A DNA stretch of 64,000 bases. Origin: Candidatus Poribacteria bacterium (GTDB lineage: Bacteria > Poribacteria > WGA-4E > WGA-3G). The position numbers and the translations under genes were made by a program. Below, one piece after another: positions 6,377 through 61,608 of the stretch. Below the pieces are notes generated by a model. That model had not been told where the DNA came from and ran no database searches. It saw only the letters and a program-made list of their open reading frames with translations. Where the stretch lies: positions 3,808,001 through 3,872,000 of the forward strand of contig OZ251518.1 of NCBI GenBank assembly GCA_965242965.1. The letters run 5' to 3'. Each line of letters begins with the position of its first letter. Within the stretch, counting starts at the first letter, position 1.

Positions 6377-7381
6377 ATGACTTGGATTGACTTTGGCTCA
6401 CCTGAATTCCTCTATTGGCTGTGGAGTGTGCTACCCATCGTCCTCTTGATATGCCTTGGCATCAGGCAGCGGCGGCAGGCGAGCGAACTCTTCCATAGCA
6501 TTCCCAATCCAACCTATGCACGGCGACACAAAATCCAAGCCGCATTGCTGATGGTAAGTTACCTCCTCGTGACATTCGCCATTGCGCGGCCGCAGTTTGG
6601 CGAAAAACAGGAACCGGTGCAACAGCGAGTCGTAGATGTCATGCTCGCGCTGGATATTTCAACGAGTATGCTGGCCGAAGATGGACAAAAAGCAGTTCGG
6701 CTGCGCCGCGCAAAACACGCCATTTTCGCGCTGGTCGAACGGATGCAGGGAAACCGCATCGGACTGCTGCTATTTGCCGAGGCGAGTTTTGTCGTCTGTC
6801 CCTTGACAACGGATGCATCCACACTCAAAGAATTCGTTGCGGCGGTGGAGCCAGTGACGCTTGTTCACAGCGGAACGCAGATTGGGAGTGCAATTGAAAC
6901 CGCAGTTGCTCGGCTGAACCGCGAACGAGACAGGGCGCATAAGGCACTCATCTTGTGGACAGATGGCGAAGACCACGGGGACACAGCAGTTGATGCAGCA
7001 AAAGCGGCAGCGAGTGCCGGTGTGCATGTCTACTGCATCGGCGTTGGAAATCCGGGGCAACCTGCGCCTATTCCGCTGGCAGATGGCGCGGGATATAAGC
7101 GGAATGTCAACGGGCAACTCGTGCTAACCGAACTTGACGAAGAAACGCTACGCGAGGTTGCCGAACAGGGACGCGGACGTTATTATCATGAGACAGAAAT
7201 CTCTCAGCAAAGTGAGCGGCTTGCGGGAGATTTAGCACGGTTGGCGACGCGGCAATTCAAGATGGGGACTCCTGATGGCGGAGGACATGCGGAACGGTTT
7301 CAGTTGTTTGTCGGCATCGCGCTTCTCTTATTGATTGCGGAAATGTTCGTGTCTTTCCAAAAAAGCCCTATCTCACCGTAG
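6377..7381 (+). CDS. VWA domain protein, BatB-like
   Basis: N-terminal TM with ARPQFG, MIDAS DISTSM, TDGED, C-terminal ERFQLF + TM. Confidence 0.9.
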   Translation: MTWIDFGSPEFLYWLWSVLPIVLLICLGIRQRRQASELFHSIPNPTYARRHKIQAALLMVSYLLVTFAIARPQFGEKQEPVQQRVVDVMLALDISTSMLAEDGQKAVRLRRAKHAIFALVERMQGNRIGLLLFAEASFVVCPLTTDASTLKEFVAAVEPVTLVHSGTQIGSAIETAVARLNRERDRAHKALILWTDGEDHGDTAVDAAKAAASAGVHVYCIGVGNPGQPAPIPLADGAGYKRNVNGQLVLTELDEETLREVAEQGRGRYYHETEISQQSERLAGDLARLATRQFKMGTPDGGGHAERFQLFVGIALLLLIAEMFVSFQKSPISP

Positions 7382-7391
7382 CCTATCTCTC

Positions 7392-7647
7392 CGTAGGTTG
7401 AGGGCCTGTCGTTCAACAGGCCGCTCTATCTCGTCGTAGGTTGAGGGCCTGTCCCTCAACAGGCCGCGAATTTGAAATCAGCCGTTTTTCGTATTCTTCC
7501 CAAAACCCCTATTTCCCCGTAGGTTGAGGGCCTGTCCCTCAACAGGCTCCAGATTTGAAAGGAACCGTTTTCACCGGCTCGCGCGGCCGTTTTTCGTTCC
7601 GTCAAAAACCCCTATTTCCCCGTAGGTTGAGGGCCTGTCCCTCAACA
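7392..7647. repeat. Cluster of REP-like GTAGGTTGAGGGCCTGTCCCTCAAC hairpins
   Basis: Four copies at about 7393, 7436, 7518, 7622; GTAG head plus stem GTTGAGGG/CCCTCAAC; another at about 6318. Confidence 0.88.
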
Positions 7648-7851
7648 TGCCGCAAAATCGCAGGGATTCTTAGATGAGAGTGTTACATAACTCAATGCTT
7701 TCCCGGTAGGATAGACCTCCTGGTCTCGATTTCTTTGGGTAGGAGAGACCTCCCGGTCTCGATGCATGTCAGACTCGTTCGGGTGCAGGCGCACCCGAAC
7801 TATAGGGCTAGCGTGCGCGCCGCTTATAGTTCAGGAGCACCTGCTCCTGAA

Positions 7852-8118
7852 TTAGTAGTGCTCAGGTCCTTGCAAATGACAGCGGGAGGAGGAAATCGAG
7901 ACCGGGAGGTCTCTCCTGCATTCTATCAGCCGGTCCGAACGATAGATGAGCTCATCAAAAGAGATGCGACCTGCCTCGTAGTCCGCAGCGTCTTTCTCCC
8001 AATGCGAAATGATTTGACCGGCAGGCGGACACGGCGAATGAAACAGGCTATATGCAACACCCACAAGGCACGCAACGATGAAGAGGATACGGAGAAGACG
8101 TTTCATGTTGGGTCTCAA
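7852..8118 (-). CDS. Small hypothetical membrane/secreted protein; C-terminus runs into a REP
   Basis: MKRLLRILFIVACLVGVAYSL hydrophobic N-terminus; follows the 8126-8647 gene closely. Confidence 0.5.
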   Translation of the reverse strand: MRPNMKRLLRILFIVACLVGVAYSLFHSPCPPAGQIISHWEKDAADYEAGRISFDELIYRSDRLIECRRDLPVSISSSRCHLQGPEHY

Positions 8119-8125
8119 GACCGCG

Positions 8126-8647
8126 TTATTCTTTCATGCGTTTCAAGAAATCTTGAAAGGCTCTGTCTTCGATGCGTTCCTGCCGAAGTTCATCTCGCTT
8201 TTCTTTTGGCCTACGAAAGAAGGCTTCGATCTGTGCCTGCACCACTTCCTCGTCGGTGAGATGTTCGGGTTGCTCGACCGCCCTGTTATAGAGTTCCCGG
8301 GCAGAGATGTGCTTGAGTGGACGTGGTGCACCCTCCGGTGGATAGTCTACGTCCAACGAGTTCCAGAGGGTTCTCCGTTTCCGTCTCGGTTGCGCGTCGC
8401 GGTTGTCATCTGTCACCGTCCTCTCGATGGCGACAGCACCCGTGACAGTCTGCGTCGGTTCCGGTTCCGGGTGCGGTTCGGCATGCCACTCGTCACCATG
8501 CCAATGCCCACCCGGCTCAACCCTCTCCGCCTCTATCCGCTCAATCTCCCTCTCCATCGCCTTCCGCTGCTGCACCTGGCGATACCAGAGGGTGCCACTC
8601 ACAATAATAGCCACTAGCAAGATCCCGATTGTGATGTTTTTTGACAT
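8126..8647 (-). CDS. Hypothetical N-terminally anchored protein with GGHWHGDEWHAEPH motif
   Basis: AGGAG RBS upstream, N-terminal TM, short coiled coil, His/Trp motif. Confidence 0.75.
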   Translation of the reverse strand: MSKNITIGILLVAIIVSGTLWYRQVQQRKAMEREIERIEAERVEPGGHWHGDEWHAEPHPEPEPTQTVTGAVAIERTVTDDNRDAQPRRKRRTLWNSLDVDYPPEGAPRPLKHISARELYNRAVEQPEHLTDEEVVQAQIEAFFRRPKEKRDELRQERIEDRAFQDFLKRMKE

Positions 8648-9158
8648 TGTTTTGTCTCCTAATTAGATCGCGAGGGACAGGCCCTCGCGCTACGGTAACG
8701 GGTGACGCTCGCGGGGGAACCCCGCTCGGATGCGCGTGTGGCATCCGAGGGCCCCCGCCCTACGATGAAAAAACGATTCTTAGGTCCGTAGGACCTTAAT
8801 GTCTATAGCCCGCGCGCCCGCGAAGAACGCTAAGGTCCTTTAGGTCCTTAATGTGTTTTGCCATGTCTGCGCGTGTTTTTTATTAAGGACCTAAAGGACC
8901 TTGAAAACAGGACGACACGTGCTGCTATAGACATGTAGGACCTAAAGGACCTAAAACGCCATCTCTTGACGATGGCCAACGCGGGGGACAGGCCCCCGCG
9001 CTACGATAAAAAACGGTTCTTGAGCCATCGCGGGGGAAACCCTCTCGGATGCGCGTATGGCATCCGAGGGCCCCCGCGCTACGGGAACATCGAGACCAGG
9101 AGGTCTCGCCTACCGGGAAGACGTTGAGTTATGAAACACCCTCAAATAATAGGCAGTA

Positions 9159-10634
9159 TCATGTCCTCAGATAAGTCTGCACCCCGCCGTAATGCCGCTC
9201 CGCCTTTGGACGCTCATCCACTTGCCACGGCAAATTCACCGGAATGAGTCCTTCCTCAAAATAGGAATCGGTTATCTGCCAGAATTGCAAGCGCGGGTAG
9301 TGCTTACCGTTGTGTTCAATGAATCCTTCCTCTTCGGCAACGTTGCGCATCCCTCGCGTAACCTCGTGCAAAGTAATGAAAATCCCAATGGCGGCACCGT
9401 TATCCCGCATTGCTGTGCGGAAGGCGCGCACCTGATTCGGGTTTAAACTCCTCCCCGATTTTACCTCGGCTATGACAGGCAGTTTCGTCTGCGCTGCCTC
9501 GGCGAGGTGCCTGTTTTCCCAGAGGGTAATCTTGCCCGTGCCGTCAAACCCGCCATCGTTGCTATTCGGCGTTGGCGCGAGGCCCAATCGGGTAACTGCC
9601 CAGTTCGCGAAATCGTGAGGATTCTGCTCGGCGAGAAGGATGGCATCTTGATGCGTTGTCGGATATCCCTCGATGCGGTAATCGGCGTTCGGACGGAGCC
9701 CATGGCGTTCTCGTAGCCGCCGCTCCATCGGGCCTAAAGCGAGGACAGTGAGCTCAATGCCTACCCAACGCCGCCCGAGGCCGTGTGCGGCATCGACTGT
9801 CGTGCCACAGCCACAGAAGGCATCGAAGACGATGTCACCGGGGTTGGAAGAGGCTTTGATGATGCGTTCAAGGAGCGCGAGCGGTTTCTGAGTGGGATAG
9901 CCGAGGCGTTCTTTGGAGAGATTAATCAACGGCTTGATGTCAGTCCACCAATCGTTAATCGGCGTGCCTTCTTCGCGATAGTGCAACGCACGGGTGCCAC
10001 CCCGGTCGGTGAACCTTTTGCCTGTCACGTTGTGTTCGCCGTAGGGACGATACTCGGTGTTAAAGATGACATCTTTCCCGCGGGCGTATCGCAAAATCAC
10101 GTCGTGTTTGCGCGGGAAATCCTTGCGCGGGATGCCGCCGCCCGCGTAACACCAGATAATCTCGTTCCGAAAATTCGCCGCGCCGAAAACTGCGTCCAGC
10201 ATCACTTTCAGGTAGTGACTCGCGTGCGGGTCACAGTGCAAATAAACGCTGCCATTCGGCTTCAACAACCGCCAAACCTCAGCCACGCGCGGTGCCATGA
10301 AGACGAGATAGGCGCGCATTGATTCATCTGCTCTCGACCCCCCCTTCAAAATTTTGTCAAAACCCGTTAAACAATCTGCTAACTTGTCCATGGTTTCAAC
10401 GAGTTCGGGGTGTCTGCCATCGTAGTAGAGGACGGATGCCTGATTCTCGCGCGCCGCGTCGTCCCACTGCCAGATGTCGTCAAACGCTTTGCGCTGCGCT
10501 TTGGAGCCGGCGAGGAAGATGTTGTAGTTGCGGCCGCTGTTAAACGGCGGATCGAAGTAACAGAGATGATAACTATGAGTTGGCATCTCTCGCATGACGT
10601 TGAGGTTATCGCCGAAATAGAGGGTATTTTCCAT
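9159..10634 (-). CDS. N6/N4 DNA methyltransferase fused to Mrr-like restriction endonuclease domain
   Basis: FDPPF catalytic motif, YPTQKP, DAFCGCGTT SAM motif; C-terminal DGGFDG...AEVKSG...VRAFR nuclease pattern. Confidence 0.88.
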   Translation of the reverse strand: MENTLYFGDNLNVMREMPTHSYHLCYFDPPFNSGRNYNIFLAGSKAQRKAFDDIWQWDDAARENQASVLYYDGRHPELVETMDKLADCLTGFDKILKGGSRADESMRAYLVFMAPRVAEVWRLLKPNGSVYLHCDPHASHYLKVMLDAVFGAANFRNEIIWCYAGGGIPRKDFPRKHDVILRYARGKDVIFNTEYRPYGEHNVTGKRFTDRGGTRALHYREEGTPINDWWTDIKPLINLSKERLGYPTQKPLALLERIIKASSNPGDIVFDAFCGCGTTVDAAHGLGRRWVGIELTVLALGPMERRLRERHGLRPNADYRIEGYPTTHQDAILLAEQNPHDFANWAVTRLGLAPTPNSNDGGFDGTGKITLWENRHLAEAAQTKLPVIAEVKSGRSLNPNQVRAFRTAMRDNGAAIGIFITLHEVTRGMRNVAEEEGFIEHNGKHYPRLQFWQITDSYFEEGLIPVNLPWQVDERPKAERHYGGVQTYLRT

Positions 10635-45895: not shown

Positions 45896-46627
45896 ATGCA
45901 GGAAACAATCAAGTCTGCGCCGACAATCCTCTATCCCGAATCGGACGGTAAACCTATGGCAGAAACCGATACTCATCGCGACTTAATCACCGATTGCATT
46001 CAGACGCTCAAGCAGCACTACCGGGAAGAACCGGACGTTTACGTTTCTGGCAATCTGCTGGTGTATTACGAACCCTATCCAAATCCCCGCGCCGTAGCAC
46101 CGGATGTCTTCGTCGTGCGCGGCGTGTCCAAAAAACCGCGGCGGATTTTCGTGGCTGCGGCGGAGAATAAGACACTAGATTTTGTGTTGGAGGTGGGCAG
46201 CCGCGGCACCTACCGGCAAGATCTTGAACGCAAGAAAAACATTTACGCCACCGAACTCGGCGTGAAGGAATACTATATCTATATCCCCTCCGGCGTAGCG
46301 GAAGAATCCTTTATCGGGTTTCGGCTCGTTGACGGTGCCTATGAACGGATAGAGTTCGTCAACGGCCGGCTGTCCTCCACGGTGCTTGGGTTGGAACTCG
46401 GGATATATGAGGATACACTGCGGTTCTATCATCCACAGCTGCAGCAATGGTTGCAGCCCCCTGAGGCACGCGTTGAACGCGCCGAGACACGCGCCGAGCG
46501 CGCCGAAGAACGCGCCGAACACGCCGAAGCGCAAGCGGAACAGGAAGCACGCGCACGCCGAGACATGGAGGAAGAACTCGCAAAGGCTTTGAGCGAAGTC
46601 CAGCGTCTTCAAGCACAGATAGGATAG
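45896..46627 (+). CDS. Uma2 (DUF820) family endonuclease with C-terminal coiled coil
   Basis: YPESDGKPMAET, VAPDVFVV, FVLEV.S, LGVKEYY, RAERAE repeats. Confidence 0.92.
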   Translation: MQETIKSAPTILYPESDGKPMAETDTHRDLITDCIQTLKQHYREEPDVYVSGNLLVYYEPYPNPRAVAPDVFVVRGVSKKPRRIFVAAAENKTLDFVLEVGSRGTYRQDLERKKNIYATELGVKEYYIYIPSGVAEESFIGFRLVDGAYERIEFVNGRLSSTVLGLELGIYEDTLRFYHPQLQQWLQPPEARVERAETRAERAEERAEHAEAQAEQEARARRDMEEELAKALSEVQRLQAQIG

Positions 46628-49206: not shown

Positions 49207-50013
49207 TTAGTCCTCAATCGTGATTTGTGAAATATCAAACGTGGGTTCGGGATACTTCATGTCCAACTTCTCCAGTGCCTCAACCACGCGTTCAGTGATG
49301 ACGAGGTTGCGGTACCACTTCTTGTTCGCCGGGATGATGTGCCAGGGTGCCCACTCGGTGCTGCAGGTATTGAAAACCGCCTCATACGCCTGCATATAAT
49401 CGTTCCAGTAAGCGCGTTCACGAATGTCGGATTCTGCGATTTTCCAGTGCTTCCTCGGGTCTTTCAGTCGCGATTCAAGCCGCGCTTTCTGTTCATCCTT
49501 AGAGATGTGGAGGAAAAACTTCAGGACAACCATCCGGTTTTCTACCAGCATTTTCTCAAAGTTGTTAATCTGCTGATACCGCAGTGCCCAGTCCTCTTCG
49601 GGCACGAGGTTATGCACCCGTGCGACAAGCACATCTTCATAATGCGAACGGTTGAAAATGCCGATGGTGCCTTTTGCGGGCACAGCGCGGTGTGCCCGCC
49701 ATAAGAAATCGTGGGAAGTTTCATGCTCGGTGGGCACCTTGAAATTGACGACATCGCATCCTTGCACGTTGATGCCGGACATCACACCGCGGATGGTGCC
49801 GTCCTTGCCGCAGGTGTCCATGCCTTGCAGGATGATAAGCAGTGCGCGCTGATTTTCGGCGTAAAGCAGTGCCTGAAGTTTCGTCAACCGCTTATGCAGT
49901 TTTTTCAGCGCGCTTTTCGTTTCCCCTTTTTTGCGGTAATGCCCGGTGTAGTCTGCGTCATAATCGGTTAAACAGACGCTACTGCCGGGCGTGACGATGA
50001 AAGGTTGTGACAT
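49207..50013 (-). CDS. ppk2: Polyphosphate kinase 2 family (class III-like)
   Basis: QGMDTCGKDG, HDFLWR, FNRSHYEDVL, IPANKKWYR. Confidence 0.93.
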   Translation of the reverse strand: MSQPFIVTPGSSVCLTDYDADYTGHYRKKGETKSALKKLHKRLTKLQALLYAENQRALLIILQGMDTCGKDGTIRGVMSGINVQGCDVVNFKVPTEHETSHDFLWRAHRAVPAKGTIGIFNRSHYEDVLVARVHNLVPEEDWALRYQQINNFEKMLVENRMVVLKFFLHISKDEQKARLESRLKDPRKHWKIAESDIRERAYWNDYMQAYEAVFNTCSTEWAPWHIIPANKKWYRNLVITERVVEALEKLDMKYPEPTFDISQITIED

Positions 50014-50064: not shown

Positions 50065-51213
50065 TTATCCCATTTCTCTATCTAGTTCTTCTAGACTCAT
50101 TTTCCGGACGAAGTCCACCGTGATTTCTGCGCCATTGCCGGTTTCAAACGCCTTCAGCAGGACGTTCCGGCACCGTTTATTCACATCTCGCGGCGTGCGG
50201 CGTTGCAAGTTCGTCAAGAGAAGTTTGAGTGCGTCCTCGGTAAATGGCGAGTAGCCTGTTTTTGGCTTCGCGGCGGTTCTGTGGTGCGCGAGGAGTTCGC
50301 ACACATATTGCAGCATCGCCTCCTCTTCCATCTCGTGAAAGAAAATCTGCTGCGTAACTCTGTCTATCAGATAGGTTCCAAGTATCAATTCGATTTCCTC
50401 ATACTCCTCAGGCGCGGTGAGCGTGAAATTCATGAAAAGCGTGAAGAAATAGGGCATCCTGTCTACGAGTTCGCGCAATCCTTGTCCAAAAGGACGGTAC
50501 TGCGGCGGCGTGAAATAGATGAAATTCTCCATTTCATCTATCCAGAGGCAGAACCGATTGTGTTCGGTAACATCAGTCGATTCGGATAGCCCGGTGAAGC
50601 AGTGAAAAACCCCGGCGAGCACCCGAAAATAGTCCTGCGTCTTTTCGAGGTTGCGATTCAAACCGAGTTTCCGCAATTCGGTAGTTGTGCATTTGCCGAG
50701 GAAGTATGCGTTCAGCAACGGTTTCGTCTTCGTCTGCACGTCTGCCAAACCGAGCAACGCATCCACGAGAACGGTGCTGAGCATCGTTTGCCGCAGGCTC
50801 TTTTTCGCTGCTGTGTACCCGACAGATTCAACCGTTCTAGTTACGGACTCTTGTATCCGCTCAAGTCCAGTCTGCTCCATGACATCGAGATAAAAATCTC
50901 GCGTCGGGTTATCAACTTCCGTGGGGGTATGGACGCGGCAAATCTCTATATCCTGCACACTAGGTGTTAGAATAGGGATATTTGCTTCATGGCTAAAGAA
51001 CAAGGAAGCGTGTGTTTTGCCGCTGCCAACGGGCCCCCGACATAATATCACCTGAGTTGGCGCGGATGCCTTTGCTTCACGGAAAACGTTGTCAAACTCA
51101 CCTTTGAGCGCGTCCATGCCCACCCAAACCGCCTGGTGTGGGTTGAGCGGTGGCACGGTTGTAAAGGGATTCTCCCGTAAACAAGCTGAATTCCAATCAA
51201 TGGAAAATTTCAT
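50065..51213 (-). CDS. P-loop (AAA+-like) ATPase of unknown function
   Basis: N-terminal ENPF, Walker A GPVGSGKT, Walker B LWIDEME, lid-like PFTEDAL...TPRDVNKRC. Confidence 0.85.
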   Translation of the reverse strand: MKFSIDWNSACLRENPFTTVPPLNPHQAVWVGMDALKGEFDNVFREAKASAPTQVILCRGPVGSGKTHASLFFSHEANIPILTPSVQDIEICRVHTPTEVDNPTRDFYLDVMEQTGLERIQESVTRTVESVGYTAAKKSLRQTMLSTVLVDALLGLADVQTKTKPLLNAYFLGKCTTTELRKLGLNRNLEKTQDYFRVLAGVFHCFTGLSESTDVTEHNRFCLWIDEMENFIYFTPPQYRPFGQGLRELVDRMPYFFTLFMNFTLTAPEEYEEIELILGTYLIDRVTQQIFFHEMEEEAMLQYVCELLAHHRTAAKPKTGYSPFTEDALKLLLTNLQRRTPRDVNKRCRNVLLKAFETGNGAEITVDFVRKMSLEELDREMG

Positions 51214-51219
51214 GATTAT

Positions 51220-51849
51220 TCACCTTGAAACTTTTTTCACACGCGGCAATGTTCTGAGCATACCGTTTAATTCCTCAAGATAGCCGAGATGGTTCCGAAG
51301 ACGCTTCATCATTTCGGCTTGTTTGCCTCCTATGCGAGAATTTACGGTTTTCAATGCCGCTTCTGTCAATACATACGACCATCTCGGAAACAATACGAGA
51401 TAGAGGTGCATGAGCAGATCTAGTGACGACCAGGTTCTCATCGTTTTGAAGCGTTCTTCATACCACGCAATCAAACCCCGACAAGCATTCATATCATCTG
51501 TTAACATGATAACCTGGCCGGTGTATTGCCGCCGCACTTGATACAGCGCGAGTGCGCAATTTTGACGTTCGCCCCGGTTGCATTTTGGGTTACCAGCAGG
51601 CGACTCGGTGAAAATCAGGTTCTCATAAACCTGTTCTCGATGGAAATATCGCCTCGCTTGCCTCACAAATTGTAATATCTGTTCGGCATTGCTATTCAAT
51701 TTGTCTTTGTGCCGCCGTACCTCGTGTGGAATCTCTCGTGAGACTTGCACATTAAATTGCTGTGTTAACACATCAACGATATGGGTTTCCCCGATATATA
51801 CATCGCGTATGTTGATGAGTGCCGAGGTATCAGGAATAAGAATATCCAT
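51220..51849 (-). CDS. PIN-domain-like nuclease
   Basis: ILIPDTSALI, E in helix (EIPHEV), RGE...ALA, MLTDD: the acidic pattern of PIN folds. Confidence 0.7.
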   Translation of the reverse strand: MDILIPDTSALINIRDVYIGETHIVDVLTQQFNVQVSREIPHEVRRHKDKLNSNAEQILQFVRQARRYFHREQVYENLIFTESPAGNPKCNRGERQNCALALYQVRRQYTGQVIMLTDDMNACRGLIAWYEERFKTMRTWSSLDLLMHLYLVLFPRWSYVLTEAALKTVNSRIGGKQAEMMKRLRNHLGYLEELNGMLRTLPRVKKVSR

Positions 51850-51944
51850 AGATTGTATCAGCGTTAAAACTTCCGATGGGATGAGCACAGAAATTTGCAC
51901 AGCATCCAGCGGCCCTAGCACTGAACTCTGCAAAAAGCCTCAGG

Positions 51945-53039
51945 CTAGATTGGACGAAAAATAAGATACGACTCATTCTCGCGACGGGAGAATCGAACTT
52001 CGTAGCGTGAATCAAGAGCCCTTGCAGACGTATCCAAAGCCCTATGAAGTTCATCAAGGTTCGCGCCAATACCGTGCTCTGTGAGTAAAAAGAGTGCCAT
52101 ATAGATGAGCGCAGGATACAGAGCTATCTTTGGTGTTGGCGTGCTTCTGAGCGTTTCAAACGCTTGATTTGCGAGATTGCGAAGCAACTCTTTTTGTTCT
52201 AATTTTTCTATTTCTGCCCACTTCCTGTCAGTGCCACCTAGGAGTGTGCGCCCGGCAACCCCAAAAAAGTGCTGCTGCAACCACGCAGGACTTGTGTGAA
52301 CGATGGAATCAGTCTCTTGGAGCCTCGGCAGCAGTTGGTAAAATTGATGCCCCTTAGCCGTTAATTTAGGGACTTTCCCGTTGCCATTTCCAATTGAAGC
52401 CAACCCGAGGTCAGCTAACCAGTGAATTCGCGGCGGCACGATATGCTCTATACCGCGTTGCGACGCTTTCCAACTCTGTGCCACGCGATTGCGCACCGCT
52501 AGAATTTCACGAGCGACGCGCGTTTCTTCTATCAATATACGGGCATCCAATTGCCGCAAATACTGCTCCTGAAATTGACTTTGCAAACCAGATAGGGACA
52601 TATTTGGTGTTTCAACCAACATCGTTAACACCGTAAGAAACTGATCGCTATCCTTTCGCAGCAGCCAATAAAGGTATGCGCATCTTTCCGGGTCAGTCAG
52701 TTCAAAAGGGCTGCGCCCTGACACCTGATTAAGAAAAGGGAGTAAGGGCTTCCCAAAGCGAGTTACACGGCAGGCACCGGCGATTCGCCCAAGCAGTCCT
52801 AATGAGGCAGCGAATTCAGTGTAGCGTTTTGCACCAGTTCGTCCCCGGGTTGCCTTAATGTGTCCTTGAGGATTTGTATAATTCGTCAAATCCTGCTCAT
52901 GGTTAAGGCTCCACCTCTCAAGACGATTATAGAGCAAGGACTCGCTGAGCGTTTTATGCTCCAGCAACTTCAAAATTGCCGACACATAACCGAGACGGCG
53001 GACGTGCGTGTTAATCTCTGTGATGCCAATTTCATACAT
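51945..53039 (-). CDS. Hypothetical protein, possibly tandem winged-helix DNA-binding
   Basis: 364-aa ORF; FAASLGLL...RVTRFG and RIHWLADLGLA...KLTAKG resemble wHTH wing endings. Confidence 0.7.
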   Translation of the reverse strand: MYEIGITEINTHVRRLGYVSAILKLLEHKTLSESLLYNRLERWSLNHEQDLTNYTNPQGHIKATRGRTGAKRYTEFAASLGLLGRIAGACRVTRFGKPLLPFLNQVSGRSPFELTDPERCAYLYWLLRKDSDQFLTVLTMLVETPNMSLSGLQSQFQEQYLRQLDARILIEETRVAREILAVRNRVAQSWKASQRGIEHIVPPRIHWLADLGLASIGNGNGKVPKLTAKGHQFYQLLPRLQETDSIVHTSPAWLQQHFFGVAGRTLLGGTDRKWAEIEKLEQKELLRNLANQAFETLRSTPTPKIALYPALIYMALFLLTEHGIGANLDELHRALDTSARALDSRYEVRFSRRENESYLIFRPI

Positions 53040-53078
53040 TTTGGGGCACCTGAAGTGACATTTACATCAGTCTTGCTA

Positions 53079-53107
53079 ATTGTACACGAGTGAATGAAAA
53101 AAAGCAA
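53079..53107 (-). promoter_or_regulatory. Putative promoter of the three-gene operon
   Basis: TTGCTT-17 bp-TACAAT on the minus strand, about 40 bp upstream of the ATG at 53039. Confidence 0.5.
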
Positions 53108-53130: not shown

Positions 53131-53164
53131 TGTCGGGCGAAGGACAGGTTTCCTTCGCCCGACA
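53131..53164 (-). terminator. Hairpin downstream of DUF4175-like gene
   Basis: Perfect 14-bp stem TGTCGGGCGAAGGA / TCCTTCGCCCGACA. Confidence 0.55.
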
Positions 53165-53175
53165 GAGCCGCTGCT

Positions 53176-56100
53176 TCATTGCGACAACGACTCGTAATAG
53201 TTATCGACGAGGCGGCGGTATTCAGGCGGGACATCCTCCTTCGCAACCTGCGAAAGACGTTTTTTCTCCTGAAGCGTGTTGAGCCGCTCTTCTAATGCCG
53301 ACTCCAACTTGTTCAAGTCCCGAATGACGAAATCGTATTTCGGGAAGGGGCGCGAACGGTTGCTCGGACGATGCTGCATCGTATCCAGCAAACCGAGCCA
53401 CAACTCCTCGATTTCGCGGTTTGATTCAACACCGGCGCGTCCTTCTTGCTGATTTTCAGCGTCGCCTTCGCCATCTTGCCCGTTTTGTTCTTGCATCGCC
53501 TGCATCGCCTGCATCGCCTGTTGCATCCGCTCCTGAATCTGCTGTTGCTGTTCAGCGAGTTGCTGCTGACGATTCTGCTGTTCCGGCGTGTCCTCTTGTC
53601 CTTCCATCGCTTGGAGTTCGCGTTGGATATCCTGCATTTGCGCTTCCATGCTTTGGAGTTGCGCCAGGGCGGCTTCCAGCTGCTCCTCTTCCGTTGTCGC
53701 CAGATTCGCTCGCGCCTGCTGCAAATCAGCCTGCGCTTGCTCCAGCGTCTCTAACACCTCTTGTTGATTCTGCGCTGCCGCTCGGAAGCTCCGCCATTGC
53801 AAAGCGCGTTGCGCCGTTGCCATATCCCCGACAGTCTGCTCTTCCGTGAGACGGTTGGCGGCATCGCCTACATTTTGAGATGCCTCTGGATTCTCGGCGT
53901 TGAGCTGCTCCTGAAGCTGCCGCAGATTGTCCTCAAGCGATTCCAGCTCTCGCTGAAGCCCACGCTGCTGATTTGCCAAATCGGAGGCGCGCTCAAAATC
54001 TTCCGGCTGCATTGACGATTGCGCCGCGCGGTTCCGAAGTTCCTGCGTCTGCTGTTGCACATCGGATTGCTCCGCTGTCAACTGCTGCAATGCGTGGATA
54101 GCATCTTCAAGCGCATCGTCAGAGAGTTCCGCGGCGACGTTCTCCAGCTGTTCAATCGCCGCCGCGAGGCGCGCCGCCGCTTGCTCACCTTTAGCGGCAC
54201 TCAGCTGCGGTTCTTGCTGCTGCATCCCTTGCGCCGCCTGTTGCATTTGCTCGCCAGCCTGCTGCATCGCTTGTCCCGCCTGTCCGAGGCGTTGCGCCTG
54301 CGTGCCTTGTCCGCTGCCTTGCATCTGTTCCAACTGCTGCGACATCTGCTGCGCTTGCTCCGACAACTGTCCTTGTTGCTGGCTATTCTGCTGCATCTCG
54401 CTCGGTGAGGGTTGGCTTTCGCGGCCTAATTGCTGGCTTTGTTGATTGAGTTGCTGCTGCTCCTCCAACATTTCCCGCGCCTGTTCGAGCATTTCTTGCG
54501 TCTGCTCCCGCATCTCCCTGTCTAGTTCACCCTGGTCCTGCTCAATTTCGCTCTGCAGTTCCTCCATCTCCAATTCAAGATTTTCCGCCGCTTGCGCGTT
54601 GCTGTTGCGCATCTGTGTCAGCACTTTCGGGAGCTCAATGCTGACTTTGATGAGCAGTTCCAACGCTTCTTGTTCTGGCGGCATCGCCTCGGTAGGCTGG
54701 GTGGCGTTGAGGCTATCGCTCGCCTCGCGCATCCTGTCGACAGCATCTTCGAGATGCATCAGAATTTCCGGCGCGACCGGGGCAGTTTGCATCGCCATGC
54801 TGATTTCGTCAACTAACCGCTGCGTCTTATCCTTCGTTTCAGACTGCTTCTCCCCGGTCTTCTTCACAGCCGAGCGATATTCATCGGTGACAGACGCGGG
54901 TGCGGCGTTGATATGCTGCCACGTTTCTCGGATAATCTGCTTCTGTGTGGCGATGAGCTCCAAGGTGACATTCGGTGCTGGTTCTCCCGGTTCCCCCTCT
55001 TGCTTCTGGAACCGTTCGTTAAAGGGACGCACCTCAATGAAGTAAATCTCGCTGCTTGCCTCCCCGGGCCCGGTGAGCGTGTTGTTATCAGTGGCTTGCG
55101 CGTAGTAAGAGATAACTTCGCCGGGCTCTACGTCAAACTCCTCCATATAGAAGGTGTAGGTGCCGCGGCGGCTTTTTGTTGTTCGGGTGATGCCTACGTT
55201 CTTGCCTTCTCCCTGGCCTGTCTCCCTGGCAAGTTCCTGCAATTCGCCTGCGCCGATACGATACATCAGTGCCAATTTTTCAACGCCGTAGTCGTCCTTC
55301 GCCTCGGCGACAATCTGCACTTCTTCTAATTTTGTCGCCTTGACATCGCGCCCGGGTTCCTTGATAACCACTTCCGGCGGGTTATCCGGAACCGCGCGGA
55401 TTTTGTATTCAATCGGAATTTCGTTGTTAAACCCATCAATGCAGTGCAGCGCAACAGCGTATGTTCCATCTTCAGTAACGTCTACCGTTGTCGTTAGGAT
55501 GTTGCCATCGGAAATCACCATCTCTGTCTGTATCGGTAAGACAGCCTCATCTGTTTCGGGCGACGCGTCTGCCTGGGAGGCTTGGCTCACCGTGAACTTC
55601 GCCATTTGGATGGCTTTGTTTGTCGTCAACCGAATTTCTGCACGCGTGCCGACAACGGCGTGAATATCTCCCGTGCCTTGCTGCACGACAGGTGGCAACC
55701 CCGTATACCCCGGATACGTATAGGCAACGGCGATATCTGTCACCCTCGGCATCTCAAAGACTTCAACGGTGTAGCGCGCCGATGTCGCCTCGTTCGCTTG
55801 GACAGTGTATTCCATGTCCGCGTCAATGTTGAAAATTTCGTAAGTAAAGCCGCGTTTATCCTCTGGATTCTGCACCATGTTAATTTCTTGTCCGGTGCTT
55901 TGCATGCGCGCACGAGAAGTATACGTCAAAACAACCTTATCGGCGGATTTGCCGGTGACGGTGACGTGAATCGGCAAACTCTTCCCACGCAGGATACGCG
56001 CATTCCCCGGTGTAACGGTGAGTTTCGTCGTCAAAATCGGCTCTGTTTTCCCCCACGGCACCAGCACGCGGAGCAGACTGGTATGAATCTCGGAAGGAAA

Positions 56101-56610
56101 CAGCAGCGATAGCACGGTACACCCGGCGACAACGAGCGCAGCGATACCGACGTGTTTCCGCGTCCGGCTCGCATCTACGGTGGCTTTGAAATCGATGCCT
56201 TTCACGCGCTCGGTTGTATCCTCAAGCAGCCGTTGCAACATGTGCGCTTCAATCACATCATCGGTTTCGCGATTTCCGAATTGCACCGCACTGACGAGTC
56301 TATCCTCAAGGTTCGGGTAATGCCGTTCCACGTTGAGGGCGACATCGCGCAGCGTGAGGGATGCACGCAGCGGTTTTATGAGGTGTTTGTAAAGCAGATA
56401 GCCGCTCGCGATGACAATGCCCGCCAGCAACGCAACGCGCACTGGACTTGGCAGCGGCATCAGCCAATCAACGATGGATTCTCCAACGACTATCGCAAGC
56501 AACCCGGTTAGGACGATGGCTGCACCAGTCCAGAAGAGCCCACGTCTCCAGACGCGCCGAGCGGCGAGAATTTTCTCTTGTAGTTCCGCGTAACTTTCTT
56601 TTGTGTTCAT
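53176..56610 (-). CDS. DUF4175-like membrane-anchored Ig + Gln-rich coiled-coil protein
   Basis: N-terminal TMs, LEDRLVSAVQF, YTYPGYTG, D.PP.V.I..P, A.DDYG, Q-rich helices, terminal VPPEYRRLVDNYYESL. Confidence 0.85.
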   Translation of the reverse strand: MNTKESYAELQEKILAARRVWRRGLFWTGAAIVLTGLLAIVVGESIVDWLMPLPSPVRVALLAGIVIASGYLLYKHLIKPLRASLTLRDVALNVERHYPNLEDRLVSAVQFGNRETDDVIEAHMLQRLLEDTTERVKGIDFKATVDASRTRKHVGIAALVVAGCTVLSLLFPSEIHTSLLRVLVPWGKTEPILTTKLTVTPGNARILRGKSLPIHVTVTGKSADKVVLTYTSRARMQSTGQEINMVQNPEDKRGFTYEIFNIDADMEYTVQANEATSARYTVEVFEMPRVTDIAVAYTYPGYTGLPPVVQQGTGDIHAVVGTRAEIRLTTNKAIQMAKFTVSQASQADASPETDEAVLPIQTEMVISDGNILTTTVDVTEDGTYAVALHCIDGFNNEIPIEYKIRAVPDNPPEVVIKEPGRDVKATKLEEVQIVAEAKDDYGVEKLALMYRIGAGELQELARETGQGEGKNVGITRTTKSRRGTYTFYMEEFDVEPGEVISYYAQATDNNTLTGPGEASSEIYFIEVRPFNERFQKQEGEPGEPAPNVTLELIATQKQIIRETWQHINAAPASVTDEYRSAVKKTGEKQSETKDKTQRLVDEISMAMQTAPVAPEILMHLEDAVDRMREASDSLNATQPTEAMPPEQEALELLIKVSIELPKVLTQMRNSNAQAAENLELEMEELQSEIEQDQGELDREMREQTQEMLEQAREMLEEQQQLNQQSQQLGRESQPSPSEMQQNSQQQGQLSEQAQQMSQQLEQMQGSGQGTQAQRLGQAGQAMQQAGEQMQQAAQGMQQQEPQLSAAKGEQAAARLAAAIEQLENVAAELSDDALEDAIHALQQLTAEQSDVQQQTQELRNRAAQSSMQPEDFERASDLANQQRGLQRELESLEDNLRQLQEQLNAENPEASQNVGDAANRLTEEQTVGDMATAQRALQWRSFRAAAQNQQEVLETLEQAQADLQQARANLATTEEEQLEAALAQLQSMEAQMQDIQRELQAMEGQEDTPEQQNRQQQLAEQQQQIQERMQQAMQAMQAMQEQNGQDGEGDAENQQEGRAGVESNREIEELWLGLLDTMQHRPSNRSRPFPKYDFVIRDLNKLESALEERLNTLQEKKRLSQVAKEDVPPEYRRLVDNYYESLSQ

Positions 56611-56683
56611 TGTGATTCTCCTCCATCGCGCTATCAACATTAAGTTTCCTTGACGAGACTTTATCAAAAAGGGCTTTCCCTAC

Positions 56684-57354
56684 CTATTTAAAAACAAGCA
56701 CCTCCAGCATAACACCCGACAGCCAGATAAGTATCGCGACAAAAGATGCCTTCACCTTCCCTGTGTCGGCGAGAATTGAGACAGCGATTGTCAAAACGGC
56801 GATAGGCCAGATGCTTAACGGATTAAAGTGGCTCAGAAACATGAGCACCTGCACGTTTTCGCTAGAACTCAAGAAATGCAATCCCGGAATCACCTGCATG
56901 TCTACCGGTGTCCTGACATTCTCAAGTCCTCTCAGCACAGGCACGAACGCCGTATTGACGAAATAGACGAACGTCGGAATGAGTGACGCATGTGCAAGAC
57001 TTGCATAGATATGTCGAAACCGACGGCGGCATCCACCCTGAAAATTCGCGCCGCGCAGGTAAGCAGCGCGCTGAGCACAACCATCGCGAGAAGTGGGATA
57101 AGAAGGGCAAACAAGAGCACAAAGTTGCCAATAATCGGTGCCGCCTCTTCAATGAGATAGCGCGGCACACGCTCCCTTGCCAACTCTAGCGAAATCAGTC
57201 GTTCCGTAAACGGTGCCGCAGACCAGGTTACACCAACTTGCAGCACACAAAAGAGGATAAGTGCCATGCCCCACTTCGGTTGGGTTTTGAGGCGCGCAAA
57301 CGTTACACTCGGTGCAACGAAAAGATCTTTGATGTTTTGCCAACTTTCTTTCAT
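56684..57354 (-). pseudogene. Frameshifted Yip1-family membrane protein paralog
   Basis: Adding one T at about 57017-57019 joins 56932-57354 and 56684-56944 into one ORF reading ...GFRHIYASLAHASL..., colinear with 57409-58095. Confidence 0.8.
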
Positions 57355-57408: not shown

Positions 57409-58095
57409 TTAAGAGGCAGACAGCACATCCGGTAGAATCCAGACGAGCCAAATCAGCACAGCGGCAATCCGTGCCCGGGTCTTGTCTACATCAGCAAGCA
57501 CTGCTACAGCGATAGCTGTCACGGCGATTATCCACACACTGAACGGATTGATGTGGCTCAGAAACATCAGCAGTTTCGCATTTTCAAGCGAACCGAAGAG
57601 GAGATGCAAACCCGGGAGCAGCCGCATAGCCACGGCGTTTTTCACATCGGCTACGTCTCGAAACACGAGCAGCAATGCAGTGTTGACGAGGTTGATAACG
57701 CACCCGAGCAGCGATAGATGCACAACGGCGGCGAAGATATGCCGAAAGGTTAAGTTTTCGTTGTTACCCAAACGCGCCGCCAATTTGAAGATTGCACTGC
57801 TAATGACGAACCACAGCACCGCAAAAAGTGGCAGGAGAAAGAGGCCGACTTGCGTCATAATCCCTACCATCATTTCGGCCGCCTGACGTTGTTCCTCCGA
57901 CATATTCGTTTGTGTTTGTGTCATTCCTTCGGCGATGAGTGCTTGGCTATACGGCGCGGTTGCCCATCCTATCAGAACATTAAATAGGTAGAAGATGAGG
58001 AAAGCGACACCCCACTTCGGTTCAGTTCTGATGCGTTCAAACGCAGCACTCGGTTCCGCGATAAGTTCTCCGATGTTACGCAAACTCTCTTTCAT
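57409..58095 (-). CDS. Yip1 family membrane protein
   Basis: EPSAAFERI...PKW, five TM segments, INPFSVW. Confidence 0.85.
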   Translation of the reverse strand: MKESLRNIGELIAEPSAAFERIRTEPKWGVAFLIFYLFNVLIGWATAPYSQALIAEGMTQTQTNMSEEQRQAAEMMVGIMTQVGLFLLPLFAVLWFVISSAIFKLAARLGNNENLTFRHIFAAVVHLSLLGCVINLVNTALLLVFRDVADVKNAVAMRLLPGLHLLFGSLENAKLLMFLSHINPFSVWIIAVTAIAVAVLADVDKTRARIAAVLIWLVWILPDVLSAS

Positions 58096-58223: not shown

Positions 58224-58775
58224 ATGGAAAAACAAGCATCCATTCCCATTTATACTATCGGCTACGGAAGCCGTCCGGTCGGAGCGTTCATGGAAGTGTT
58301 GCGCCTGCACCAGATAGCGTATCTCATTGACGTGCGTTCTACGCCTTATTCGCGCTACAAACCGGAGTTTTCCAAAGACGCTCTGGCATCGGCACTCCAC
58401 CGACACGGGATTCACTACGTCTTCATGGGCGATACCCTCGGCGGGCACCCCGATGATGAAACGTGTTACGTGAACGGAAAAATTGACTACGAGCAGGTGA
58501 AGACAACGGCGGACTATCAGCGGGGGATTGAACGCCTCCGCAATGCTTTCGCGCAGCAACGCCGCGTTGTCCTGATGTGTAGCGAGGGGAAACCGGAACA
58601 GTGCCATCGCAGCAAACTCATCGGCGCGACGCTGACAGCAGCGGATATTCTGGTGCATCACATTGATGAGAAGGACGAACTGCAAACGCAGGAAACAATC
58701 ATTGAACGGCTGACAGGCGGACAACTGCCGCTGTTCGGCGAGGAGACGTTCCACTCGCGCAAGCGATACTTGTAA
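58224..58775 (+). CDS. DUF488 family protein
   Basis: IYTIGYGSR, LIDVRSTPYSRY.PEF, LGG.P, LMCSE.KP..CHRS. Confidence 0.93.
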   Translation: MEKQASIPIYTIGYGSRPVGAFMEVLRLHQIAYLIDVRSTPYSRYKPEFSKDALASALHRHGIHYVFMGDTLGGHPDDETCYVNGKIDYEQVKTTADYQRGIERLRNAFAQQRRVVLMCSEGKPEQCHRSKLIGATLTAADILVHHIDEKDELQTQETIIERLTGGQLPLFGEETFHSRKRYL

Positions 58776-58894
58776 CGGCGGCTTTGAGCCGGGTCCGTTT
58801 TTCGTAGGGCGAGGGCCTGTCCCTCGCCGTGTATAGTGCTGTCAGTCGGATTTCATACGGGCCCGTTTTCCGTCCGAATCACGCGAGAATTATT

Positions 58895-59386
58895 ATGAAA
58901 ACGCCCAAAATTATCACCATTGGCGTATACGGATATGACGAAGAGAGTTTCTTTTCTGCGCTACAAGCGGCAAACGTAGATACCTTCTGCGACATCCGCA
59001 GCCGGCGCGGCGTGCGCGGCGCGACTTACGCATTCGCCAACAGCGTCCGGTTGCAATCGCGCCTCGCGGCACTCGGCATCCGCTATCTCCATTGCAAAGA
59101 GCTCGCGCCGACGAAAGCAGTGCGCGACAAACAAGCCGCAGCGGATAAAGCAGACAACGTTGCTAAACGCGAACGCACTACGTTGGGAGAAGCGTTTATT
59201 GCGGCATACCACGCCGAATGCCTCGCGCATTTTGAGCCGCAAAGTCTACTGGACAAAATCGAGGCAGATGCGCAAGTTGTCGCTCTCTTTTGCGTTGAGA
59301 GAGAACCAGCGGCGTGCCACCGTTCACTCGTCGCCGAGAAACTGGCGAAAGAACTTGGACTGGAAGTTGAGGACATTGTCCTATGA
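58895..59386 (+). CDS. DUF488 family protein (second subtype)
   Basis: ITIGVYG, DIRSRRGVRG, ELAPT, LFCVE.EP..CHRS. Confidence 0.9.
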   Translation: MKTPKIITIGVYGYDEESFFSALQAANVDTFCDIRSRRGVRGATYAFANSVRLQSRLAALGIRYLHCKELAPTKAVRDKQAAADKADNVAKRERTTLGEAFIAAYHAECLAHFEPQSLLDKIEADAQVVALFCVEREPAACHRSLVAEKLAKELGLEVEDIVL

Positions 59387-61608
59387 GAGTGCTAATTGTT
59401 GCGAAAACGCGGATGGGAAGCGGTGCGTGCATTGGCGCGCTCACGGAGAAAGGCGAGAGCGTGCGGCTTGTTCCGTTCAACGCCGATGAACACCAGGGCG
59501 CAAATCGGGAGTATGAGATAGGTGAAATCTGGGAGATTTCCGCGAAACCCGCGGCCGCTGTCATCCCGCCGCATCACGAAAACATCGTCGTCTATGAAAA
59601 GCGGCACCTCCGTACCATGACAGCATTGGAAAGCGCGATTGAGCTCCTCATGCCGCCTAACATCGGACACCCGCGTGAACTCTACGAAGGACTCTTACAG
59701 ATGAGCCGTAGCGGCGCGCTTTACATCGCAGAGAAGAGCGGGATGCCACCTTACAGCACAACGTTTTGGCGGCCAGACCAGGCACTCACCCGTGATACGG
59801 ACAGCAGACGCATTCGGTATCGTTACCCCACAGCAGATGGCGGATGCACGCTCACCTATGTCGGTTTTGAAGAACCGCTTGAAACAATCCCTGCTGGCAC
59901 CCTCGTGCGCGTCTCGCTCGCACAGTGGTGGAAACCGACAGACAGAACGGATAATGAGGAACGGTGCCACGCGCAAATTTCCGGCTGGTTCCTCGAAGAA
60001 TCAGTAGGCGAGCCCTCCCGTTCTCAACAGACATCACCGGTAGAAGAGCCCTCCCTGTCTCAACGCTCTCAAGCCGACATGCCGCCGCCTGAAACCCCAC
60101 GCGAATATCTCAAGCAAGTCTTCGGACACGACGACTTCCGAGCGTTGCAAGAGGAAATCATTACGCACGTCCTTGAAAGACACGATGCTCTGATAGTCCT
60201 ACCGACAGGCGGCGGAAAATCACTCTGCTATCAGCTGCCCGCGCTCATTTTTCAGGGGGTTTCTGTCGTCGTTTCGCCCCTCATCTCACTTATGCAGGAC
60301 CAGGTGATGCAGTTGGAACAAAAAGGCATCCCTGCCGCTTTTCTCAACAGCACTGTGAGTTATGACGCTTACGTTGAAACGATGCACCAAGTCAAACGCG
60401 GCGAGATTAAGTTGCTTTACGTCGCGCCAGAAACACTCGTGCGCAATGAAATCCTGCTGATGCTTGACGCGTCCAATGTCGCGTGCATCGCTATTGACGA
60501 GGCGCACTGTATCTCGCAGTGGGGCCACGATTTCCGTCCCGAATATCGGCAACTCGTCTCGGTGCGCGAACGGTTCCCGAACGCTGTCTGTGTCGCGATG
60601 ACAGCCACCGCCACGCCGAGGGTGCAGGCGGACATCACGCAGTCGCTGCAATTGCAAGCGGAAAACCAATTCATTGCTAGTTTCGACCGGGGGAATCTCT
60701 TCATCACTGTGGAACCGAAGGTTGAGTTGCTGCGGCAGACGCTTGCGTTTCTCAATGCCCACCACGGCGAATCGGGTATCATCTACTGCCAGACGAGGAA
60801 ACAGGTGGAATCGCTGTGCCACAATTTAAGCACCTACGGGATTCAGGCACTCCCCTATCACGCAGAACTGGGTGCGGAAACCCGCAAGCGACATCAGGAG
60901 GCTTTCATCAACGGCGACACACGAATTATCGTCGCGACGATTGCCTTCGGCATGGGGATTGATAAGCCGGATGTCCGCTTCGTCCTCCACGCCGGTTTGC
61001 CGAAGGAACCCGAGTCTTACTATCAGGAAATCGGCCGTGCCGGGCGCGATGGGCAACGTTCCGAGTGCCTGCTGCTATTCAGTTATGGCGATGTGGACAC
61101 GATTCACCATTTCATTGATGAAGGCGCGCCGAGTGAACGTAAAGGACGGCTAGAACGGTTGAATACGCTTGTCGACTGGGCGACTTCGCTGGAGTGCCGT
61201 CGCAAGGGGTTGTTAGCCTATTTCGGAGAACAGTCCGAACAAGCCAATTGCGACATGTGCGATAACTGCCGCCAAGCACGGGAAGAACGCGTCGATCTGA
61301 CGTTGCCAGCGCAGAAATTCCTCTCGTGTGTTTATCGCACAGGGCAAATGTTCGGCGGCGCGCATATTATCAGTGTGATACGCGGTTCAAAAGCGAAAAA
61401 GGTGCTTGAAAATGGACACGACGCGCTCTCTACCTACGGCATTGGCACGGAGTATAGTGCGGCGCAGTGGAACTACCTCATGCAACAGTTTATCCAACAC
61501 AAGTTGTTGCGGCGAGATGCGCAGCACGGCAGTCTGCGTTTGACTGAAAAGGGGTGGGCAGTCCTCCGAAGCGAGGAGCCGTTTTTGGGATTTTCGGTGG
61601 AAAAGTGA
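59383..61608 (+). CDS. recQ: RecQ helicase with N-terminal dual-OB-like domain, no HRDC
   Basis: PTGGGKSLCYQ, DEAHCISQWGHDFR, ATIAFGMGIDK, YYQEIGRAGRDG, Zn-binding CRR..CDMCDNC, RQC; N-terminal about 200 aa KTRM...CIGA...VRL...RVSLAQWW...CHAQISG. Confidence 0.88.
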   Translation: MRVLIVAKTRMGSGACIGALTEKGESVRLVPFNADEHQGANREYEIGEIWEISAKPAAAVIPPHHENIVVYEKRHLRTMTALESAIELLMPPNIGHPRELYEGLLQMSRSGALYIAEKSGMPPYSTTFWRPDQALTRDTDSRRIRYRYPTADGGCTLTYVGFEEPLETIPAGTLVRVSLAQWWKPTDRTDNEERCHAQISGWFLEESVGEPSRSQQTSPVEEPSLSQRSQADMPPPETPREYLKQVFGHDDFRALQEEIITHVLERHDALIVLPTGGGKSLCYQLPALIFQGVSVVVSPLISLMQDQVMQLEQKGIPAAFLNSTVSYDAYVETMHQVKRGEIKLLYVAPETLVRNEILLMLDASNVACIAIDEAHCISQWGHDFRPEYRQLVSVRERFPNAVCVAMTATATPRVQADITQSLQLQAENQFIASFDRGNLFITVEPKVELLRQTLAFLNAHHGESGIIYCQTRKQVESLCHNLSTYGIQALPYHAELGAETRKRHQEAFINGDTRIIVATIAFGMGIDKPDVRFVLHAGLPKEPESYYQEIGRAGRDGQRSECLLLFSYGDVDTIHHFIDEGAPSERKGRLERLNTLVDWATSLECRRKGLLAYFGEQSEQANCDMCDNCRQAREERVDLTLPAQKFLSCVYRTGQMFGGAHIISVIRGSKAKKVLENGHDALSTYGIGTEYSAAQWNYLMQQFIQHKLLRRDAQHGSLRLTEKGWAVLRSEEPFLGFSVEK

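Follow-up and report, generated by a model that had tools for sequence, protein, structure and literature searches.

Phosphorothioate (PT) systems are, to our knowledge, the sole known defence that is based on a mark in the DNA backbone. One of them, the Tdp system attributed to An and colleagues in 2025, is said to carry an ATPase and nuclease pair, TdpAB, which is restrained by PT marks. Of 2,678 sspBCD clusters, 2,211 lack a known restriction partner, and the question of further partners has been raised (PMC8092258; Wang et al., 2021). Here we describe a three-gene operon, consisting of genes A, B and C (together ABC), in a 64,000-nucleotide stretch of DNA from a Candidatus Poribacteria bacterium (contig OZ251518.1, positions 3,808,001 to 3,872,000; in the following, the window). 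The family of this trio is probably an undescribed defence arm of PT systems, and the copy in the window is probably stranded away from them. All three genes lie on the minus strand and span positions 50065-53039 of the window:

51945..53039, minus strand: gene A, an open reading frame (ORF) of 364 aa for a putative DNA-binding protein
51220..51933, minus strand: gene B, a PIN-like nuclease candidate of 237 aa from TTG 51933, with a conserved core of 209 aa from ATG 51849
50065..51213, minus strand: gene C, 382 aa, a predicted AAA+ ATPase of the AAA_22/TniB kind

Among the described modules, SspFGH is made up of one protein with a Walker A motif, one unknown protein and a large one whose end is FtsK-like (PMC8092258). 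It resembles ABC as a three-gene cassette beside sspBCD with one Walker A subunit, in its patchy distribution and horizontal spread, and in the proposal that it damages DNA without PT (PMC8092258). However, SspH exceeds 1200 aa and bears the FtsK-like end, whereas the largest ABC protein has 382 aa and no FtsK_SpoIIIE match was found in the trio. An identity of ABC with SspFGH was rejected: the PADLOC models of SspF, SspG and SspH matched none of A, B or C, but they did match the genes that follow an A-C-B set in locus L084. In this positive control, the 600-, 507- and 1693-aa genes downstream of A-C-B matched SspF, SspG and SspH with E-values of 1.6e-110, 3.7e-94 and 4.4e-261. The true SspFGH beside A-C-B therefore indicates that the two modules are distinct and able to share one operon.

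The other described modules also differ from the trio. SspE, a PT-sensing protein with DUF262 and DUF1524, also partners sspBCD and links an NTPase with a nuclease. It does so in one polypeptide of the ParB/DGQHR and HNH kinds, however, and the Pfam search of A, B and C gave no match to such families. DndFGH and PbeABCD are multi-gene modules of an ATPase and a DNA reader beside PT modification genes, often solitary or alongside a second module (PMC6459918; PMC10853773), but A, B and C gave no PADLOC match to them. In several dnd-linked ABC loci, Pbe-like genes (a CxC/SMC-like ATPase and a protein of ~150 aa) occupy the other side of dndCDE, and we therefore regard them as separate modules. 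Menshen (NsnABC) is similar in its proposed chain from a DNA sensor over an ATPase transducer to an effector with a PIN-like domain (PMC12065111). There, NsnA is a ParB-DUF262 protein, NsnB an ABC ATPase and NsnC carries a PIN domain that is described as inactive and fused to a toxin (PMC12065111), whereas in the trio the ATPase is of the predicted AAA+ kind and the acidic set of the PIN-like protein is intact. Neither a ParB-DUF262 sensor nor an ABC ATPase was matched in A, B or C with Pfam or PADLOC. Furthermore, no TdpAB-like match emerged when the profiles of B and C were searched against the sequences of all solved structures.

At the level of families, the window's A, B and C matched 0 PADLOC families at E<=1, the distant set of locus L070 gave 0 PADLOC matches at E<=0.01, and no Pfam or NCBIfam family scored above cut-off for any of the three proteins. 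We did not find the trio described in the accessible literature on Ssp, Dnd and PT systems; the supplementary neighbourhood tables of PMC10853773 and PMC8092258, which lay outside this scope, may hold the genes unnamed. An original prediction, made by a model from the sequence alone, had proposed a candidate defence system without a name. This holds in so far as no named defence family of PADLOC matched it, but the trio is not free-standing, since in relatives it is a component or partner of Ssp and Dnd PT systems.

The analysis of these relatives was based on 87 loci, many of them short contigs. A pattern-seeded scan of 185,579 species with one genome per species yielded 24 genome loci, a number limited by the pattern, and a metagenome scan added 63 loci with identities down to 24%. 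The tallies of genes around C in these loci are lower bounds: stop-to-stop rescans added gene B in L049, L056, L061, L064 and L077 as well as SspB in L058, L059, L062 and L065. The hosts of the 24 genome loci are Poribacteria, metagenome-assembled genomes (MAGs) of Gammaproteobacteria, Pseudanabaena, Acidobacteriota, Chloroflexia, Chloroflexaceae and Dehalococcoidia. Altogether, the family spans at least five phyla (Poribacteria, Acidobacteriota, Chloroflexota, Cyanobacteriota and Pseudomonadota). Within 41 related genomes, gene C is present in only 5, the window's own included; of these copies, one lies as a fragment at the end of its contig and another is broken. The family is thus rare and horizontally spread, and its patchy occurrence together with its presence in several phyla is what one expects of an accessory defence-type module.

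The three genes form a conserved, co-inherited unit, in line with the co-occurrence across genomes that the original prediction implied. The order A-B-C is kept in 22 of the 24 genome loci, the other two being L014, which is without B, and L034, which is without A; in 8 metagenome loci, which form a divergent set, the order is A-C-B. Gene C is preceded by at least 2.2 kb in 52 loci, and exclusion of 2 that end right after C left 50 assessable ones. Both A and B accompany C in 43 of these, and the seven exceptions lack B (L014), A (L034, L041, L071 and L074) or both (L054, which has a B fragment, and L073). In every arrangement B adjoins C. At positions 6714-9323 (plus strand) of L034, a Chloroflexaceae MAG, an 869-aa NNH1-NACHT STAND protein directly precedes B-C in the usual place of A, a sensor swap that is typical of defence systems.

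Clustering of the neighbouring genes in the 24 genome loci revealed three recurrent families, which Pfam and PADLOC identified as SspB (DUF4007 E 1e-91, PADLOC 1.8e-90), SspC (PADLOC E 0) and SspD (PAPS reductase, PADLOC 1.3e-87). PT genes were then sought in all 87 loci with profiles built from the neighbour genes of the loci. Genes of the ssp or dnd type were detected in 53 of the 87 loci (ssp genes in 44). Of the 27 loci whose flanks each reach 5 kb or more, 24 have the trio within or beside such genes. The trio thus neighbours defence genes across genomes, which was a check suggested for the original prediction, and these are the PT genes.

The arrangement of the genes varies considerably. 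In L068, L070 and L094, SspB-SspC-SspD-A-B-C is a packed six-gene operon with overlapping stop and start codons. The order SspD-A-B-C-SspB-SspC is found in L048 and L058-L065, and in total the trio stands between sspD and sspB-sspC in about ten loci, while ABC is followed by SspB-SspC in L029 and L050. In Poribacteria, sspDCB and ABC are divergent, and in another clade of this phylum dndC-dndD-dndE is divergent from A. Varied gene order in conserved company is a classic sign of functional linkage and argues against inherited synteny. The partner type is also reflected in the phylogeny of C. In a maximum-likelihood tree obtained by a quick IQ-TREE search, in which several branches are long and the deep joins unsure, the dnd-linked copies grouped together with 3 label changes compared to 8.7 expected, and 0 of 500 shuffles were as low. 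The window's C falls within a clade of 10 rows with 99% support, 8 of which are ssp-adjacent.

Gene C carries the Walker A motif GPVGSGKT at 51013-51036 and the Walker B motif CLWIDEME at 50527-50550. The intact Walker motifs noticed in the ATPase from the start are confirmed by conservation: G60, G63, G65, K66 and T67 of Walker A and D226 and E227 of Walker B are invariant in 28 of 28 aligned homologues. The same is true for N262, R285 and R342, which by their position stand where sensor 1, the arginine finger and sensor 2 of the C-terminal lid are expected. The AAA_22 match of the window's protein has an E-value of 0.003, and 19 of the 28 family members matched AAA_22 and 10 TniB. Against solved structures, C gave a weak TnsC match (E 0.27) and nothing better than E 0.04. 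Judged from these motifs and matches, C is an AAA+ ATPase of the AAA_22/TniB kind. The ~150 residues between Walker A and Walker B may represent an enlarged helical insertion as in initiator-type AAA+ proteins.

For gene B, the start conserved in the family is ATG 51849 (MDILIPDT). The protein matched PIN_4 with an E-value of 0.005 and 17.5 bits, compared to a Pfam cut-off of 21.9, and PIN_4 matches were obtained for 4 of 33 family members. When the B profile was compared with solved structures, the best match was the PIN domain of Rrp44/DIS3 (E 0.0029), with D7 of B aligned to the D of LPDT, E43 to the E of QEVR and TDD to TND. All 33 homologues have the acidic residues D7, E43 and E94 as well as D or E at position 119, and 31 of the 33 have D118. 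The acidic set conserved in PIN-type proteins (D, E, D/E and D at the ends of the core strands) is present in B, which bears out the pattern proposed originally. The label 'RNase effector' that came with it is a guess.

The nearest solved relative of B is an endoribonuclease (endoRNase) PIN domain, which would fit a role in back-up suicide: B might be an endoRNase toxin that A and C hold in check until the PT system is blocked or overwhelmed; its release would then stop the growth of the infected cell in an abortive infection, in place of cleavage of the invading DNA. PIN and HEPN endoRNases with such a proposed role have been described where Dnd neighbourhoods end, in some cases on the opposite strand (PMC10853773; Rakesh, Aravind and Krishnan, 2024). 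They resemble ABC as PIN nucleases beside PT modification genes, and the dnd-linked ABC copies are divergent from dndC; in addition, several loci contain ABC together with SspFGH or Pbe-like modules. However, in ssp loci ABC is inside the operon and not at a border, with reading frames that overlap sspD, and the accessible part of that paper describes no conserved trio with an AAA+ ATPase and a winged helix-turn-helix (wHTH)-like protein, and none within ssp operons. Toxicity of B is purely putative. PIN-fold nucleases, moreover, include DNA nucleases too. We consider the suicide role unlikely on balance.

Protein A contains two winged-helix-like 'helix plus wing' motifs at approximately residues 70-100 and 200-240. 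In a representative library of 1.84 billion proteins clustered at 50% identity, its family comprises 524 clusters with a threshold of E<=1e-3; with E<=1e-30 the number is 238. Matches to the winged-helix family HTH_45 were obtained for 30 of 120 diverse members (best E 1e-6, all below cut-off) and fall at approximately residues 71-115 and 212-248, but the window's own protein A gave no HTH_45 match. The wHTH-like character that had been predicted for the first gene is thus found at sub-threshold level in relatives and not in the protein itself. Likewise, the proposed layout of DNA-binding sensor, NTPase and nuclease stands at the level of motifs, while its sensor part depends on these matches in relatives. 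Against solved structures, A gave matches at chance level: a weak one to an HxlR-type wHTH protein (E 0.5) and one to an annexin (E 0.01), in which no stretch passed alone.

A possible link between A and PT recognition is seen in the A-family cluster P0376. Its N-terminal stretch resembles NF045808, a family of restriction endonucleases that bind PT-DNA, in the half responsible for DNA binding (E 4.9e-6). In the subgroup with A-C-B order, A is longer (~520-550 aa) and has an extra N-terminal domain of ~170-190 residues (P0465, P0487 and P0494; L087 6685-8334; L093 4558-6171), for which no Pfam or NCBIfam family match was found. Two candidate relationships of A were tried and rejected. As a diverged SspB, it reached an hhalign probability of 6-9% against the SspB alignment over a single wing motif of 32-48 residues, and a Pfam search found no match to DUF4007, the SspB family, in A or the A family. 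As a diverged SspG, it reached a probability of 1% against one SspG sequence.

These results bear on the idea that ABC is an accessory of the modification itself, which would help to choose, limit or prepare PT sites as an extra DNA reader, loader ATPase and nicking enzyme and would not be an anti-phage effector. Winged-helix-like motifs such as those of A are also ascribed to the reader SspB (PMC10853773), and the position of ABC between sspD and sspB-sspC as well as its presence alongside bona fide restriction genes would be in agreement with such a function. The profile comparison of A with SspB, however, indicates no real relation, most ssp and dnd clusters work without ABC (in Poribacteria genomes, SspC 25/41 versus C 5/41), and the invariant nuclease active site and the replacement of A by a NACHT protein fit an effector better. 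A role in modification thus appears very improbable to us.

Further information came from the genome of the host and its relatives. The host genome encodes sspC, sspD, a PT-DNA-binding HNH endonuclease (NF045808, 3.6e-94) and dndCDE. The ssp genes are part of a defence island (L035, G000:C1:2436000-2454000) with a DGQHR/DndB-like protein of 771 aa, SspC, SspD and the NF045808 endonuclease (3.6e-94), after which two CD-NTase-like genes surround a patatin phospholipase in a CBASS-like arrangement. A paralogue of C was detected directly beside dndC-dndD-dndE (L007 7369-8658, minus strand, G000:C1 ~4551368-4552657). This 429-aa ORF is 36% identical to the window's C and 46% to the dnd-linked type, stands without A or B, and has a degenerate Walker A motif (APRAEGQAYAS instead of GPxGxGKTHAS). 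It is what remains of a second copy, one linked to dnd. On the far side of dndCDE, the same locus contains a Pbe-like SMC/CxC ATPase and a gene of 160 aa.

In the sister species G002 of the same genus, the same site between the ppk2 and DUF4175-like genes holds residues 1-48 of A joined to residues 186-382 of C, with stop codons inside the match (L009 7598-8346). This site is a deletion remnant of the operon. The G002 genome gave no SspC match, and DndC is present. Together with L014, which lacks B, and the host paralogue with its degenerate Walker A motif, this decay fits a dispensable accessory module. The window's copy is intact and has all motifs, yet it stands as an orphan, and its lineage is losing such modules. 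It may work in trans with PT marks made elsewhere in the chromosome, or it may be on its way to loss, as happened in the sister species.

Taken together, these results make it reasonably probable, in our view, that ABC is an unnamed PT-coupled effector module, a 'restriction' or abortive arm alongside SspBCD or DndCDE. This reading is based on the co-inheritance of the three genes, their linkage to PT genes in varied arrangements, the PADLOC names of the neighbours and the tree of C, as well as on the P0376 fusion, the NACHT swap in L034, the invariant catalytic motifs of B and C, the PT genes of the host and the patterns of decay. In the proposed mechanism, A as a multi-winged-helix-like protein would read DNA and its PT state. 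The TniB/ORC-like AAA+ ATPase C would assemble on the nucleic acid marked by A and use ATP as a switch or motor, and B, as a PIN-like metal-dependent nuclease, would then cut nucleic acid, either DNA or RNA. More tentatively, and with slightly less than even confidence, we suggest that ABC constitutes a third, unnamed class of PT-dependent restriction module after SspE and SspFGH. Its basis would be a PIN-family nuclease that is driven by the AAA+ ATPase and by a DNA reader of its own, and its partner could be the PT machinery of single strands (Ssp) or that of double strands (Dnd).

Several observations weigh against an effector module coupled to PT. Three of the long-flank loci are without clear PT modification genes: L021, where SspF/G/H-like genes directly precede A and the contig end cuts the locus, L033, which among PT genes has just a weak SspD-like gene, and L034, the NACHT-B-C variant. 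Furthermore, no PT genes were seen in the B-C subgroup that lacks A (L071, L074 and L075). Other restriction modules stand beside ABC: L084 contains SspFGH, L021 and L064 contain SspFGH-like genes, and Pbe-like genes occur in L026, L027, L042 and L051. ABC can therefore not simply be equated with 'the' missing nuclease. Poribacteria genomes commonly encode PT genes (SspC in 25 of 41, DndC in 15 of 41), so that co-presence at the level of the genome says little by itself, and related loci are non-independent samples. The window's ABC is next to no PT gene, with sspCD at a distance of 1.41 Mb and dndCDE at 0.69 Mb, and SspB was not found in the host genome (94.7% complete) by tblastn, a Pfam family search or an SspB profile applied to the 18-kb sspCD locus. 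Finally, the wHTH assignment of A and the designation of B as a PIN-like nuclease candidate come from sub-threshold matches, and every step of the mechanism is deduced from domains and gene context.

The coexistence with a second effector module has precedent, since SspE is found with SspFGH in 36 genomes and PbeAC with DndFGH in 25 (PMC8092258; PMC6459918). In L021 (30-8241, plus strand) of Pseudanabaena sp. 'Roaring Creek', the SspF/G/H-like genes directly upstream of A-B-C encode 434, 517 and 1798 aa. The 1798-aa protein has an FtsK_SpoIIIE domain, and the 517-aa protein also resembles the MADS7 family (NF047733, 2.6e-13). This locus could be cloned because the genome is that of an isolate.

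The solitary copies might also indicate a module for defence or addiction that is autonomous and does no more than share defence islands with PT genes, and the lone copy in the window, intact as it is, would then be in its normal working state. Such a view is in agreement with L033, L034 and the L071-L075 group without clear PT modification genes, and with the precedent of PbeAC, which is solitary in 320 of 553 cases (PMC6459918). On the other side, nearly all long-flank loci place the trio beside PT genes, with four or more gene orders and with reading frames that overlap, which is a closer association than clustering in islands. In addition, the partner type tracks the phylogeny of C. Relatives of C were also absent from the viral contigs of IMG/VR and the plasmids of PLSDB that we searched. 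We see little probability in an autonomous module and prefer the PT-coupled effector.

The immediate surroundings of the operon in the window comprise four features:

53131..53164, minus strand: hairpin in the gap between the DUF4175-like gene and gene A, terminator-like with a 14-bp stem and a weak T-run
53079..53107, minus strand: weak promoter-like hexamer pair upstream of gene A, TTGCTT-17-TACAAT, read by eye
49207..50013: ppk2, the downstream flank (PPK2, Pfam E 1.1e-72)
53176..56667: DUF4175-like gene, the upstream flank, encoding a membrane and coiled-coil protein of 1163 aa (Pfam E 2.9e-11)

Most of what had been predicted for this layout was recovered. ORF calling returned three co-oriented genes of 364, 209 and 382 aa, where the 209 aa of B correspond to the conserved family start, and the Pfam matches of both flanks place the block between ppk2 and the DUF4175-like gene. 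The hairpin that separates the upstream gene directly follows the DUF4175-like stop codon and has a folding energy of -30.4 kcal/mol (z -4.8; 0 of 200 shuffles fold as well). It is absent from the list of a consensus terminator scan because its T-run is weak. The suggested AT-richness was also seen in windowed composition: A, B and C have G+C fractions of 0.489, 0.456 and 0.506, the whole block has 0.487 compared to 0.542 for the genome, and 1.1% of the 3-kb windows of the genome are as low. The weakest part of the prediction was a promoter of its own, since a sigma-70 scan of the minus strand upstream of gene A gave no site and the hexamers read by eye (TTGCTT at 53107-53102, a 17-nt spacer and TACAAT at 53084-53079) agree with the consensus at 8 of 12 positions, below the scan threshold.

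Neither the DUF4175-like protein nor ppk2 of the window has a match among the neighbours in the 24 genome loci; a ~1165-aa neighbour in relatives was considered as a counterpart of the DUF4175-like gene but turned out to be SspC. Other genes in the window were noted in passing. A Uma2-family putative restriction-endonuclease-like gene (45896-46627, plus strand, Pfam E 4e-18) lies 3.4 kb beyond ppk2. About 5 kb from the operon, at 58224-61608 (plus strand), two DUF488 genes, each with an additional match to the 'active DUF488-N3' subclade, precede a RecQ helicase whose N-terminus bears a dual-OB (DuOB) domain; this group may act as a cassette in conflict or repair. Two short ORFs of 86 and 140 aa at 56684-57354 (minus strand) resemble by eye the halves of a paralogue of the Yip1-domain gene at 57409-58095, and the pair may be a broken duplicate of this neighbour.

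As an addition within a known kind, the effector modules of PT restriction-modification systems, the trio is rare and phylogenetically wide. Embedded in ssp operons across five phyla, it provides a concrete, clonable candidate partner; with 24 loci in 185,579 species, it could explain a small share of the orphan sspBCD clusters at most. If the proposed function is true, a PIN-type nuclease with an AAA+ switch would be added to the PT toolbox, and the block in the window, a seemingly isolated novelty, gains a specific functional home. If ABC is indeed a third class of PT-dependent restriction module, its frequent solitary and decaying copies would show how effectors are shed once the modification partner is lost.

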